Positions 4,319 through 28,113 of a DNA stretch of 38,952 nt are shown here, in pieces. Source of the stretch: Candidatus Staskawiczbacteria bacterium (lineage in GTDB: Bacteria > Patescibacteriota > Minisyncoccia > Minisyncoccales > Staskawiczbacteraceae); assembly GCA_943354455.1 (NCBI GenBank), contig CALRCB010000001.1:1-38952 (forward strand), in the 5' to 3' direction. The translations under genes were made by a program, and so were the position numbers. Under the pieces are notes generated by a model. The model saw only the letters and a program-made list of their open reading frames with translations. It was not told where the DNA came from and ran no database searches. Every line of letters starts with the position of its first letter. Position 1 is the first letter of the stretch.

Positions 4319-4350
4319 AGCAAAAACAGGCCAATTGGCCTGTTTTTGCT
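4319..4350 (+). terminator. Perfect 14-bp hairpin after ndk (probable terminator); marks the left edge of the GC-rich island
   Basis: The arms agcaaaaacaggcc and ggcctgtttttgct flank the loop aatt. The T-run lies inside the 3' arm. Confidence 0.6.
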
Positions 4351-4399
4351 TGGCCAGACGCGAGCAAGGCCGGCTTTGCAGGATTGCCCGTCTCGGCTA

Positions 4400-4428
4400 T
4401 TGACAAACGTTGTTACTGGGTGTATAAT
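4400..4428 (+). promoter_or_regulatory. Consensus sigma70-type promoter for the DGR target gene
   Basis: TTGACA (4400-4405), a 17-nt spacer and TATAAT (4423-4428) lie about 60 nt upstream of the target ORF. Confidence 0.6.
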
Positions 4429-4487
4429 GAAGTCATAGGGTAAATAGCTTATTTTAAGCCTATTCCCTTGTACTTTTCAATGAAAGG

Positions 4488-5174
4488 ATGATGACGATGT
4501 CCAAGACATTGATCACATCTCGCGACCCCAAAGGCCTACAAATTGCTACCCTTTTTGATGCTGCGCTCAACAAAGCGCCGCTCGATTCCGAGCGCGCCCA
4601 GCGCCTCATTGAGAGAGGAGGTGAATTCCAGGATGGTATTCTGGAGCTCGTGGCAAAACTGTCGGCCCCCGAACCAATCGCCAAGTGGACCGAAAAAGAC
4701 GGCGTCATTAAGCTGACCGTCACGTCCGATGGCAAGACCGGCCAAGAGTGGATTTCCCACTTTGAGGCCAATGGAGTCCGGCTTTCAAAATGGGCTAAGG
4801 GTGTTCTCCTGTCGCCGGACTTCAAGCCGACCAACGGTGTGACCACAAAAATCGAAGTCTTGAAGGGTTCGCTCTTTACTGACAACGATCGGATCACATC
4901 GAAGATTCGCGTCGAGGCCGATAAGCGGAAGTTTTCTAAGCCCAATGCGGAAGTCGCTTGTCTCATCCGTGACATGTTCACAGATGCAGAAATGGAAGCG
5001 ATGGGTCTTTATTGGATTGTGGTGTTCCACGAACCCATTAAGGATTCCGTTGGCGTTCCTGGCCTTCTGAGCGCGTATCGCAGTGACGATGGTCGATGGC
5101 TCGACACCGACTATGGCAAGCCTGACTACTACTGGAGTCAGGACAGCGGTTTCGCTTTCGCGTCTGGCAAGTAG
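4488..5174 (+). CDS. DGR variable (target) protein with a C-terminal VR, probably a C-type-lectin-like fold (start more likely the ATG at 4497)
   Basis: The last 42 codons are the variable repeat. The C-terminus reads LLSAYRSDDGRWLDTDYGKPDYYWSQDSGFAFASGK. AGGA at 4485-4488 is spaced best for the ATG at 4497. GC content is much higher than in neighbouring genes. Confidence 0.85.
   Translation: MMTMSKTLITSRDPKGLQIATLFDAALNKAPLDSERAQRLIERGGEFQDGILELVAKLSAPEPIAKWTEKDGVIKLTVTSDGKTGQEWISHFEANGVRLSKWAKGVLLSPDFKPTNGVTTKIEVLKGSLFTDNDRITSKIRVEADKRKFSKPNAEVACLIRDMFTDAEMEAMGLYWIVVFHEPIKDSVGVPGLLSAYRSDDGRWLDTDYGKPDYYWSQDSGFAFASGK
5043..5170 (+). repeat. DGR variable repeat (VR)
   Basis: It aligns base-for-base with 5513-5640 (offset 470). 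There are 16 mismatches, each opposite an A in the other copy. Confidence 0.93.
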
Positions 5175-5235
5175 GTTCTTGATGCTTATTTCCCTTTGCC
5201 CCTTTGGGCACTTGGAACATTTGCACTTTGAACGT

Positions 5236-5283
5236 GCGCTTTATGAAAAAATCACAAAGATTTTTTCATAAAGCGCTTTTTTT
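5236..5283 (+). terminator. Rho-independent terminator of the DGR target gene
   Basis: A perfect 18-bp stem (gcgctttatgaaaaaatc / gattttttcataaagcgc) with loop acaaa is followed by T7. Confidence 0.85.
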
Positions 5284-5284
5284 A

Positions 5285-5293
5285 TGCTACAAT
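5285..5293 (+). promoter_or_regulatory. Extended -10 promoter candidate (TGcTACAAT) that could drive the TR RNA
   Basis: The sequence tgctacaat sits immediately after the terminator. It matches the TGnTAYAAT pattern seen at 167, 8161 and 26361. Confidence 0.35.
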
Positions 5294-5512
5294 ATTTGCG
5301 GTAGTAGGCGATTATGTAAAAGACTAAGGTTTTTTGCTGCCAAATCCAGTATCCATATATTGAGAATATCTTAGGCCACGGCTTTAGGTAGAGTAGTATA
5401 TGAAATTAAAAAAAAGAAGATACTTGGTGCGAGATATTAAGGCATTAAGATGCCAAATAAAATACAGTCCCAAGAATATTCAAGGGACAGTGGCACAGAT
5501 GATGTCTCGTAC

Positions 5513-5640
5513 AATTCCGATGGCGATCCTAACCTTCTGAACGCGAATCGCAATGACGATGGTCAATGGCTCAACACCAACTATGACAAGCCTGACAACA
5601 ACTGGAATCAGAACAGCGGTTTCGCTTTCGCGTCTGGCAA
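5513..5640 (+). repeat. DGR template repeat (TR), a non-coding RNA template
   Basis: This is the adenine-bearing copy of the repeat. In the VR frame it contains 11 AAY (Asn) codons, all 11 of which are altered in VR. Confidence 0.93.
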
Positions 5641-5646
5641 CTCTCT

Positions 5647-6090
5647 TTATTTCTCCTCCTTTTGTATATTGGAGGAGTTTTCTTTTGCAAGCTGTTTTAC
5701 TAATTGCCCGTTCCAACCGCCCAACATTTTACCGACTTCATCTATTTTTAATGACAGTGCAATATATTTTTTATTGTCTAAGGATTTTGTTTCCCAGAGA
5801 ATCATTAGGAGTATTTTTAATAAATCATTTTTCTTAATTGCAAAAACTACGTAGGGTAGTTTTTTGGTGCGGTCAAGAAAACTAGCAGTGGAAACTGCTT
5901 CTATTATTTCGACAAATAAATTATCAATACGTTGTCCTAGCGAGTGCCTGTGGACTTTTGGTAGTAATGGGTAATAATCAAACCAAGCTAAATAAGCACT
6001 TTTGGTTTTTTCTAAAATAGGCAAAAGTCGCAAGGTCTGGGGGGGGGGATTAGAAGCCCCGTTATTATTATGAAAATTATTTGCAACCAT
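5647..6090 (-). CDS. avd: Avd-like DGR accessory protein (four-helix-bundle family); true start uncertain (ATG 6090, or TTG at 6033 or 6024)
   Basis: PLLPKVHRHSLGQRIDNLFVEIIEAV and KIDEVGKMLGGWNG resemble Bordetella phage Avd (PIAQSIPRKHG..., AEVGRILGSWI). The size and the position next to TR and RT fit. Confidence 0.8.
   Translation of the reverse strand: MVANNFHNNNGASNPPPQTLRLLPILEKTKSAYLAWFDYYPLLPKVHRHSLGQRIDNLFVEIIEAVSTASFLDRTKKLPYVVFAIKKNDLLKILLMILWETKSLDNKKYIALSLKIDEVGKMLGGWNGQLVKQLAKENSSNIQKEEK
5653..5686 (+). terminator. Terminator-like hairpin plus T-run immediately 3' of TR (inside the 3' end of the antisense avd gene)
   Basis: A ctcctcc / ggaggag stem of 7 bp with an 11-nt loop is followed by ttttctttt on the + strand only. 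Confidence 0.45.
6039..6048. repeat. G10 (C10 on the minus strand) homopolymer tract
   Basis: I counted ten consecutive G. The tract lies in codons 15-18 of the avd ORF if the ATG at 6090 is used, and 21 nt upstream of the RT ATG. Confidence 0.9.
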
Positions 6091-7074
6091 CGGTTTGAAG
6101 ATTTAATTCATATTGAAAATCTGCTTTTGGCATGGGAAGAATTTTTGAAAGGTAAAAAACAGAAAAAAGATGTCCAGCAATTCCAGTTCAATCTTATGGA
6201 TAATATCCTATCACTGAACCGCGACCTTAGCAATGGAACGTACCGCCATGGCAAATACTACGAATTTAATATTTCTGACCCAAAACCCCGCATCATCCAC
6301 AAAGCCACCGTGCGCGACAGGTTATTGCACCACGCAGTGTATCGGGTTTTGTACCCATTTTTTGATGACACTTTCATTGCTGATTCTTTTTCCTGCCGAA
6401 TCGATAAAGGTACCCACAAAGCCATGGCCCGGTTTAAAACATTCGCCAATATTGTTTCAAGGAATAACACCAAAACCTGCTGGATATTAAAGTGCGATAT
6501 TAAAAAATTCTTTGCCAGCATAGATCAGAATATTTTGCTAAATATCTTGGATGAAAGGATTAAAGATAAAAGAATCGTTGCCGTATTACAGAATATTATT
6601 GAAAGTTTTAATTCGGGCAGGCCGAGAACCGGCCTGCCGTTGGGAAACTTAACCAGCCAGTTATTCTCCAATGTGTACATGAATGAATTTGACCAGTTTG
6701 TAAAACATAAGCTAAAACTGAAATACTACATCAGGTATGCTGATGACTTTGTAATATTTTCCGATGATAAAACATATTTGGAGCAGGTAATTATGCTGAT
6801 GGCAGAATTTTTGCACGATACCCTAAAACTTACTTTGCACCCCGATAAAATTTACATCAAAACTCTGGCCCAAGGAGTGGACTTTTTGGGCTGGGTGCAC
6901 TTTTTTGACCACCGGGTGTTGCGGACGGTGACTAAAGACAGGATGTTTAAAAAGTTAGAAAAAACTAGAAAGCCACAAGTGCTGGCTTCGTATTTGGGAT
7001 TGTTGGGGTATGGGGATACCGGGAATATTAAAGAAAAAGTTTTCCACTTGACTGGGTTTTTTAAAAAATTATAA
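6070..7074 (+). CDS. DGR-type reverse transcriptase
   Basis: LPLGNLTSQLFSNVYMNEFD carries the DGR-specific (I/L)GxxxSQ motif, and YIRYADDFVIFSDD carries the YxDD box. At 334 aa it lacks maturase and endonuclease domains. Confidence 0.93.
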   Translation: MKIICNHRFEDLIHIENLLLAWEEFLKGKKQKKDVQQFQFNLMDNILSLNRDLSNGTYRHGKYYEFNISDPKPRIIHKATVRDRLLHHAVYRVLYPFFDDTFIADSFSCRIDKGTHKAMARFKTFANIVSRNNTKTCWILKCDIKKFFASIDQNILLNILDERIKDKRIVAVLQNIIESFNSGRPRTGLPLGNLTSQLFSNVYMNEFDQFVKHKLKLKYYIRYADDFVIFSDDKTYLEQVIMLMAEFLHDTLKLTLHPDKIYIKTLAQGVDFLGWVHFFDHRVLRTVTKDRMFKKLEKTRKPQVLASYLGLLGYGDTGNIKEKVFHLTGFFKKL

Positions 7075-7082
7075 TTAAGATA

Positions 7083-7210: not shown

Positions 7211-7244
7211 AAAAATCCGCCCTACGTAGGCGGTTTTTTGTTTT
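7211..7244. terminator. Bidirectional terminator between the RT (+) and rpmB (-)
   Basis: The sequence aaaaa-tccgcc(c)tacgtaggcgg-tttttt has A5 on one side and T6 on the other. Confidence 0.7.
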
Positions 7245-7257
7245 AAGTAATATATAA

Positions 7258-7449
7258 TTATTTAGCCATTGCCTTCATGCACTTAGTGCAGGCAAGGACT
7301 CGTGCTTTAGTGCCGGTAAGCAAACGAACCCATTGTAAGTTTGGGTATTTCCTCACTTTTTGAGTAGGGTTGTATTTTCCTCGCAATTTTACTAATTGCC
7401 AAGACATCCCGGATTTTTTCTTGCAGATTGTACAGATTTTTGATGCCAT
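7258..7449 (-). CDS. rpmB: 50S ribosomal protein L28
   Basis: The 63-aa product is MASKICTICKKKSGMSWQLVKLRGKYNPTQKVRKYPNLQW...VLACTKCMK, an L28 pattern with a Cys pair. Confidence 0.85.
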   Translation of the reverse strand: MASKICTICKKKSGMSWQLVKLRGKYNPTQKVRKYPNLQWVRLLTGTKARVLACTKCMKAMAK

Positions 7450-27774: not shown

Positions 27775-28113
27775 ATGCTCGCTAAACTGCCCGAAGACAA
27801 GGTGCTTTTTAGTCAAGCCCTGGAAACCGATAAAGAAAAGGTGCAAAAGCTTTGTGTCAACATTGAGATGATGTGTTGCGCCTATAGTAAAAATCAGCAC
27901 CGTCAGTTGATGTTGTATAAGCGCGAGAATGCATATGGCAGGCAAGAGGCGGGGATCGCCTATTTACCAGGACCCAAGTGTACGGCTTCCAAGCTTTTCG
28001 CAAGGGAAATGCTTAGGTTGTTTTCTAAAGATCCCAATTATTGTTTCGATTTTGCCGAAAAATACTATTTTGACTTGGTAAGTGCGAAGAATTATCTGAG
28101 TCCCCACAGTTAG
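27775..28113 (+). CDS. Hypothetical protein (compositionally atypical)
   Basis: The 112-aa product has no recognisable motif. GC content is visibly higher than in the flanking genes, and a strong SD (GGGAGGA) lies upstream. Confidence 0.5.
   Translation: MLAKLPEDKVLFSQALETDKEKVQKLCVNIEMMCCAYSKNQHRQLMLYKRENAYGRQEAGIAYLPGPKCTASKLFAREMLRLFSKDPNYCFDFAEKYYFDLVSAKNYLSPHS

Follow-up and report, generated by a model that had tools for sequence, protein, structure and literature searches.

A GC-rich retroelement target gene in an AT-rich Patescibacteria genome, and evidence from its family for module exchange

How did one GC-rich gene come to lie in an AT-rich genome? The question is raised by positions 4351–5235 of a 38,952-nt (39 kb) stretch of DNA from Candidatus Staskawiczbacteria bacterium (contig CALRCB010000001.1; the whole stretch is called the window below), a member of the Patescibacteria, or candidate phyla radiation (CPR), with a mean GC content of 37.6% in the window. 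The segment contains a single open reading frame (ORF), 4488–5174, which encodes the variable target protein of a diversity-generating retroelement (DGR) and is followed by the template repeat (TR), an inverted avd gene, and the reverse transcriptase (RT) gene, in that order (Table 1). We favor, with moderate confidence, the explanation that the GC richness of the target gene marks it as part of a module, in many cases together with the TR, that has been exchanged among Patescibacteria largely independently of avd and the RT gene.

The sequence-only reading, made before any database search, had described the segment as a GC-rich outlier, and the full counts bore this out. The GC content is 51.4% across the segment and 53.3% across its ORF (GC at third codon positions, GC3, 0.62), while 687-nt sliding windows elsewhere had a standard deviation of 3.0 points and a maximum of 47.3%; the RT and avd genes lie at 38% and 35%. 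Among the ~55 ORFs of the window, the target alone exceeded a GC3 of 0.51. Its codon adaptation index (CAI), calculated with the window's own ribosomal-protein and elongation-factor (EF) genes as reference, was 0.369, the lowest of 48 genes (others, 0.618 ± 0.072). At fourfold degenerate codons C is the favored ending in the target (0.42) and A is rare (0.11), whereas the ribosomal-protein and EF-Tu genes of the window use A at 0.4–0.55 and C at 0.08–0.15. Thus in both composition and codon usage the target is atypical of its host, as a horizontally acquired gene would be. The second most atypical gene of the window, a 112-aa ORF at 27775–28113 (GC3 0.51, CAI 0.48), is without a match in Pfam and is not repeated anywhere else in the window.

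Codons ending in a pyrimidine (NNY) mark highly expressed genes in many bacteria, and a gene served by both a consensus promoter and a Shine-Dalgarno (SD) sequence might owe its codon bias to translational optimization for high expression. The ribosomal-protein and EF-Tu genes of this host, however, favor A-ending fourfold codons, and it is by their standard that the target scores lowest; we find optimization scarcely credible as the cause.

The compositional contrast recurred in 80 related loci drawn from GTDB species representatives. The target had 56.5% GC relative to 43.4% in its flanks (77 loci; +13 points), and it exceeded its own RT gene by 16.4 ± 6 GC points in 35 of 35 cassettes, RT and avd lying 3–4 points under the flanks and tracking the host (r = 0.74 and 0.69, respectively; RT slope 0.85). 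The target was the top-GC3 ORF in 59 of 70 loci (mean z 4.7), and the rise in GC was limited to the target ORF. Target GC3 stayed at 0.68–0.72 across a host GC3 of 0.3–0.67, and the gene was native-like (z 0.8) only in hosts with a GC3 of at least 0.6. The base frequencies at fourfold sites were A 0.08, C 0.44, G 0.25, and T 0.23 in the family target, as opposed to A 0.22, C 0.25, G 0.23, and T 0.29 in the flanks.

An antisense gene overlapping the target, or a functional structure in its mRNA, could also impose a composition of this kind. A 173-aa antisense ORF does lie at 4460–4981, and the minimum free energy (MFE) of the transcript has a z-score of −5.7 relative to dinucleotide shuffles. 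The antisense frame, however, is open in 51% of family members, no more often than in synonymous shuffles; the MFE z-score relative to synonymous shuffles averages −2.0, equal to that of control genes; and the value of −5.7 probably owes part of its size to the 18-bp terminator hairpin, which was part of the folded sequence. We give this explanation almost no weight.

Evidence for exchange came from pairwise comparison of the cassettes. Target cores were at least 90% identical at the DNA level in 26 cassette pairs, of which 19 have RT genes no more than 70% identical; identity at fourfold sites in those pairs was 0.7–0.95 for the target and 0.2–0.35, i.e., saturated, for the RT gene. The breakpoints fall at the TR/avd or the avd/RT junction. 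Loci L006 and L011, for instance, are 96–99% identical over a stretch running from the start of the ORF across the 3' untranslated region and the 5' portion of the DGR RNA to the end of the TR, and past the TR/avd boundary their identity falls to 55–70%, whereas between L003 and L020 the break lies between avd and the RT gene. A third pair, L051 and L072, is 92–100% identical save for ~300 nt inside the target ORF (64–79%), this divergent stretch, ~100–400 nt into the ORF, constituting an intragenic mosaic. By single linkage, 32 of 81 species-level loci share target cores at least 86% identical, and these 32 loci carry many CPR lineage names, a flank GC of 0.30–0.52, and unrelated neighbors. 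Because near-identical cores, alone or together with the TR, adjoin RT genes that are only ~65% identical, with breakpoints at the TR/avd or avd/RT junction, these alignments support the view that, at the level of the family, the target, often with the TR, has had a history separate from that of avd and the RT gene. The sequence-only reading had proposed different histories for a target/variable repeat (VR) module and an RT/avd module; the division between target and enzymatic genes holds in the relatives (the 19 of 26 pairs), with the amendment that in some pairs, such as L006 and L011, the TR travels with the target.

Under the explanation we favor, the target module (often including the TR) would be horizontally exchanged and recombined among Patescibacteria; it would hold a GC3 of ~0.7, which is native only to the GC-richest lineages; and, once in AT-rich hosts like this one, it would decay slowly by C>T and G>A changes. 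The fourfold sites of the low-GC members (T 0.35–0.49, A 0.14–0.30, C ~0.25, G 0.04–0.11) are consistent with what C>T and G>A transitions acting on a GC-rich state would give. The purine fraction at these sites is 0.26–0.34 across all bins of fourfold-site GC (GC4) of the targets, and polarized synonymous singletons comprise 23 changes from G or C to A or T (S>W) vs three in the opposite direction (W>S).

Several observations weigh against this explanation. The exchange is seen in relatives only, the sole close relative of the window, strain P0001, being known as a protein. The distant GC-rich members are near synonymous saturation (fourfold identity 0.37 vs 0.30 expected), and GC-rich hosts number only ~6 of 64; therefore, a model with GC-rich donors alone would require outward transfer on a very large scale. 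The distances between targets and those between RTs remain correlated (Mantel r = 0.47), so exchange is frequent yet not free. Genomes at compositional equilibrium likewise show an excess of S>W over W>S among their recent changes, and the singleton count of 23 to three is thus not decisive. The RT gene (GC3 0.47, CAI 0.58) and avd (CAI 0.51) of the window are themselves mildly atypical. Finally, at equal GC4 the purine fraction at fourfold sites is 0.33 in the target vs 0.46 in other CPR genes, an extra pyrimidine bias that transfer alone does not explain.

Some of these points count in favor of another explanation, in which GC3-rich, pyrimidine-ending codons are actively maintained in each host, either by recombination-associated GC-biased gene conversion (gBGC) or by selection at synonymous sites, with no import from GC-rich donors. 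Such maintenance would account for a target GC3 that is almost constant across hosts and stays high in distant members near synonymous saturation, for a GC rise limited to an ORF that is also a recombination hot spot, and for a coding-strand purine depletion surpassing that of GC-matched CPR genes; the Mantel correlation and the GC3 of 0.63–0.77 in unrelated small proteins encoded behind the same leader (described below) point the same way. However, gBGC is strand-symmetric, and the shift observed consists mainly of a loss of A and a gain of C at a constant level of G. Recent synonymous changes run strongly from S to W, a clade of ameliorated low-GC members exists, and the codon usage is opposite to that of the host's highly expressed genes, with no selective reason known. 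As the mosaics between cassettes weaken it further, we regard maintenance without import as a serious but less likely rival, and continue to favor an exchanged module.

The DGR itself is well delimited. The VR and the TR, its copy at an offset of 470 nt downstream, differ at 15 of 127 nt, all of them TR adenines, with an extra A-to-G difference just outside the repeats (5043/5513); in ~44 related loci, too, VR/TR differences are limited to TR adenines. The 3' ends of the two repeats share 27 identical nt (5144–5170 and 5614–5640) and then diverge, in the manner of an initiation of mutagenic homing (IMH) element, and the terminator hairpin may double as the hairpin that typically follows the IMH in DGR targets. 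Within the TR, 24 codons have A at position 1 or 2, eight of them being AAC, and A occurs once at a third position, giving a coding potential of ~9e21 protein variants. The RT translation carries YADD and GNLTSQ motifs, read by eye, and the avd product matches the NCBIfam model DivGenRetAVD at 1e-14 (54.7 bits, under its cutoff of 80). The protein of strain P0001, encoded on a contig of the same synteny, differs from that of the window at 15 residues, 14 of which are in the VR. Because all 14 fall at TR-adenine codons (the one further difference lies elsewhere), the DGR is, as judged from these two sequences, active in the population, and the pattern of the repeats identifies the gene at 4497–5174 as the target of a genuine CPR-type DGR. 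In this cycle, the TR RNA is copied with adenine-specific errors and the copy takes the place of the VR, with changes at as many as 24 C-terminal codons of the target.

Adenine-directed mutagenesis offers a further explanation for the adenine-poor synonymous sites, namely, that they are the footprint of DGR mutagenesis spilling over the whole target. The frequency of A at fourfold sites (A4) falls from an N-terminal 0.18 through core values of 0.08 and 0.06 to 0.02 in the VR (flanks, 0.22), and only the coding strand is depleted in purines, as spill-over would have it. The drop in A, however, is a step at the boundary between N-terminus and core, not a gradient. Longer TRs covering the target core were considered and rejected: in all loci the TR measures just 126–135 nt and is not homologous to the core. 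The VR/TR spectrum (A>G 448, A>T 150, A>C 84) does not match synonymous sites that are rich in C, and per locus it is uncorrelated with composition. Moreover, where no DGR lies within 3 kb, the target is GC-rich to the same degree, and some DGR-linked members have an A4 of 0.2–0.3. We consider spill-over highly improbable.

The target segment is a self-contained transcription unit, with a consensus promoter, a short leader, the ORF, and a terminator. As the sequence-only reading had noted, its promoter (4400–4428) stands apart: it is the sole 12/12 match on either strand of the window, in which three other sites match at 11/12, and an SD sequence, AAAGGA (4483–4488), follows it. Most other genes had been said to lack both promoter and SD; if so, the scarcity of promoters would be explained by the make-up of the window, the bulk of which is a single ribosomal-protein operon. 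Upstream promoters matching at 11/12 or better were found in 46 of 75 family loci vs 0.6% of random 250-nt controls, and a GC-rich hairpin with a T-run is kept at the terminator position across the family. The −35 box is separated from the terminator hairpin of ndk by ~55 nt of GC-rich sequence (4346–4399) that are not conserved in the relatives and may be the left edge of an imported module. A further promoter match, at 11/12, lies at the RT stop codon (7048–7075).

In ~70 of 80 relatives a structured leader of ~140 nt separates promoter and target (e.g., L003:9830–9985, L015:9825–9979, and L036:2400–2557). It consists of a long bipartite stem, a CCUC...GAGG hairpin, which resembles an anti-SD/decoy-SD pair, and a hairpin abutting the SD. 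Compensatory changes were present in 22 of its 29 predicted pairs, and pairing was 94% vs 79.5% in shuffles, none of 500 of which reached 94%. The window lacks this ~140-nt leader (best E 0.63) and has a 61-nt leader instead; neither the leader nor the window segment has a match in Rfam. The same leader also precedes other small proteins (L036:3904–4638, L016:4094–4657, L074:8413–9024, and L060:7808–8320), which have VR-like C-termini rich in W, G, R, and D and are GC3-rich (0.63–0.77), with no match to the hidden Markov model (HMM) of the target family or to Pfam, and no TR match within their own loci.

Downstream of the target, a −10-like element and the box GGYAGTAGGYGA are conserved (5300–5316 in the window). 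The box GGCAGTAGGTGAATATG occupies the same place in relatives; in the window, the box GGTAGTAGGCGATTATG lies ~210 nt upstream of the TR. This box probably marks where the TR-containing DGR RNA starts. Just before the TR, at 5457–5491, there is a sub-threshold match to the Rfam family RT-16 (21.9 bits, E 1.5).

The target product had been given as 228 aa, the length of the longest ORF. Relatives, however, keep the context AGGAGG-ATGATGACG-ATGTCT, the SD and start being conserved in L083 and L084, and because of this conservation the true start is probably the ATG at 4497 and not position 4488. From 4497 the window protein reads MSKTLITS... over 225 aa, and the proteins of its nearest relatives open with MS(K/T)TLITS. 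The claim that the product has neither an N-terminal signal nor a transmembrane segment withstood closer analysis. The maximum Kyte-Doolittle mean over 19 residues was 0.87 in the window protein, relative to a transmembrane threshold of ~1.6, and at most 1.52 in 94 family members, among which no transmembrane segment or hydrophobic N-terminus was detected. No lipobox was found in the window protein or in the 94 relatives, and since the reading frame opens only at 4458, a longer N-terminus is impossible. The protein would thus bind a ligand either in the cell or after nonclassical export.

Homologs number more than 1,374 in a collection clustered at 90% identity, all those with an organism name being Patescibacteria, and a profile search retrieved 2,356 clusters at 50% identity. 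The N-terminal 180 aa had been said to match nothing recognizable, and the window protein has no match in Pfam, NCBIfam, or PDB sequences; the family profile has none in PDB, and 56 members have none in Pfam. A viral reservoir was considered and rejected, with no homolog in IMG/VR or among GenBank phages. Across the family loci there is no conserved partner gene beyond RT and avd. The N-terminal ~60 residues are variable and are modeled, at low confidence, as three helices, and residues 65–228 are strongly conserved across the family. The model of this core (pLDDT 94.2, pTM 0.90) is an alpha/beta fold in which the diversified residues sit in the terminal beta-hairpin (~191–209) and the last strand (~220–226).

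The VR-encoded tail had also been likened to C-type-lectin-fold (CLec) variable proteins, and this likeness found no counterpart in either profiles or structure. None of 56 members matched an HMM of FGE-sulfatase, DUF1566, or another CLec family at E ≤ 1. The best Foldseek match of the core model in PDB had an E of 0.18 and a TM-score of 0.25, and the best match in BFVD had an E of 0.34, whereas a superposition on Mtd, TvpA, or a C-type lectin-like domain (CTLD) would call for a TM-score above ~0.5. C-type lectin domains are over-represented in the nonsignificant tail of the Foldseek matches, and a very divergent or elaborated CLec fold is possible. Only the best 150 matches were listed in the search of the representative library, and distant members were not usable as a bridge to CLec families. 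A bolder and more tentative proposal, which we would not put beyond a possibility worth stating, is that the diversified domain, being neither a C-type lectin nor an immunoglobulin (Ig) domain, would represent a third kind of scaffold among DGR variable proteins, borne on a promoter-leader-ORF-TR module that would circulate among Patescibacteria and plug into unrelated avd/RT genes; that its GC3 and pyrimidine richness would be kept by a process linked to mobility or regulation; and that several target families with no relation to one another would be regulated through a new leader RNA.

Similarities between the window element and known systems are closest for the CPR DGRs of the B3 architecture, TR-(avd)-RT with inverted avd, which made up 90% of the CPR DGRs in Wu et al. 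2018 (PMC5758913), and for "DGR clade 2" of Roux et al. 2021 (PMC8144416). The gene order, the inverted avd, and the CPR hosts are the same, as is a small, C-terminally diversified target with no transmembrane segment, signal peptide, or known domain and with a VR of unknown fold. CPR targets devoid of transmembrane segments, signal peptides, and known domains have been reported earlier (Roux 2021, PMC8144416), and the VRs of such targets were left as "unknown VR" ("UVR") classes (Wu 2018, PMC5758913). Where accessible, this literature does not report the 16-point GC gap between target and RT, the module swapping, or the 5' leader; accordingly, target-RT compositional decoupling, the swapping of target plus TR, and a fold with no structural match appear undescribed in the accessible literature.

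The element of Bordetella phage BPP-1 (mtd-avd-TR-brt) shares with that of the window an adenine-specific, mutagenic TR-to-VR retrohoming, an AAC-rich TR, an unmutated IMH-like 3' end, a hairpin downstream of the VR, and the pairing of Avd with an RT. Unlike the BPP-1 element, that of the window is chromosomal, its avd is inverted, and its target has its own promoter and terminator and is not recognizable as a C-type-lectin tail-fiber protein. Mtd, TvpA, and the FGE-sulfatase/DUF1566 class resemble the target in a C-terminal VR that ends in a G-F-x-F-like strand, and CLec variable proteins also carry their variable residues on a beta-hairpin; moreover, the order of secondary-structure elements in the target (beta-alpha-beta-alpha-beta ... 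hairpin-beta) is loosely CTLD-like. In contrast to the CLec class, the target has three extra helices where the long-loop region of a CTLD would be, and no DGR variable protein is among the top 50 PDB matches of its model. A different parallel is offered by the DGR-diversified intracellular conflict-system sensors of multicellular bacteria (PMC10907252): the target probably lacks export signals, so its diversification may likewise serve intracellular recognition. Those sensors, however, are described as belonging to putative conflict systems, whereas the window target, at 225 aa, stands alone.

The CPR have DGRs unusually often, and their targets are functionally obscure; the window gene is now placed in one of the largest target families. 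If the target module transfers apart from the enzymes, RT trees alone would mislead when DGR cassettes are traced, and the same transfer would explain why so marked an island of composition is seen here. In the relatives, the covarying leader, along with the conserved promoter, offers a handle on the timing of protein production.

Table 1. Coordinates of the target gene, its signals, and the DGR components within the window
Feature	Position (nt)	Strand	Basis or remark
Sigma-70-type promoter of target gene, TTGACA-17-TATAAT	4400–4428	+	12/12 match
Short 5' leader	4436–4496	+	Sequence and fold; hairpin ~4447–4472, SD AAAGGA 4483–4488
Longest target ORF, 228 aa	4488–5174	+	ORF list, translation
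Target (variable protein) ORF, 225 aa	4497–5174	+	Start inferred from conserved AGGAGGATGATGACGATGTCT in relatives
Variable repeat (VR), residues ~186–228	5044–5170	+	127-nt alignment to TR
Intrinsic terminator of target gene, 18-bp hairpin and T-run	5236–5283 (hairpin 5236–5276)	+	Terminator scan
Promoter-like TTCATA-17-TACAAT with TG, then conserved box GGTAGTAGGCGATTATG	5265–5316	+	
Template repeat (TR)	5514–5640	+	Repeat alignment with VR
avd (accessory variability determinant)	5647–6090	−	Pfam bAvd 5e-11
DGR reverse transcriptase (RT)	6070–7074	+	Pfam RVT_1 1.7e-23

The order TR, inverted avd, RT gene is kept in ~40 loci, and the RT gene adjoins the target in at least 33. The longest avd and RT ORFs, on opposite strands, share 21 nt at their 5' ends (6070–6090); this divergent abutment recurs in relatives and is the site of the recombination breakpoint in L003/L020. 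The genes of the window run in the order superoxide dismutase, HD-domain protein, SpoU, SWIB, metallo-beta-lactamase, ndk, target, avd, RT, L28, and M50 peptidase, beyond which lies the S12-S7-EF-G-EF-Tu ribosomal-protein operon. The target adjoins the M50-peptidase/S12 operon region in L017 and L076 as well as in the window, and in L076 it stands there with neither RT nor avd. Directly upstream of the cassette, tRNA genes are found in L015 (9699–9769) and L003 (9088–9161 and 9347–9418). In the window, the RT gene and the minus-strand L28-like gene (7258–7449) are separated by a bidirectional terminator hairpin at 7217–7233.

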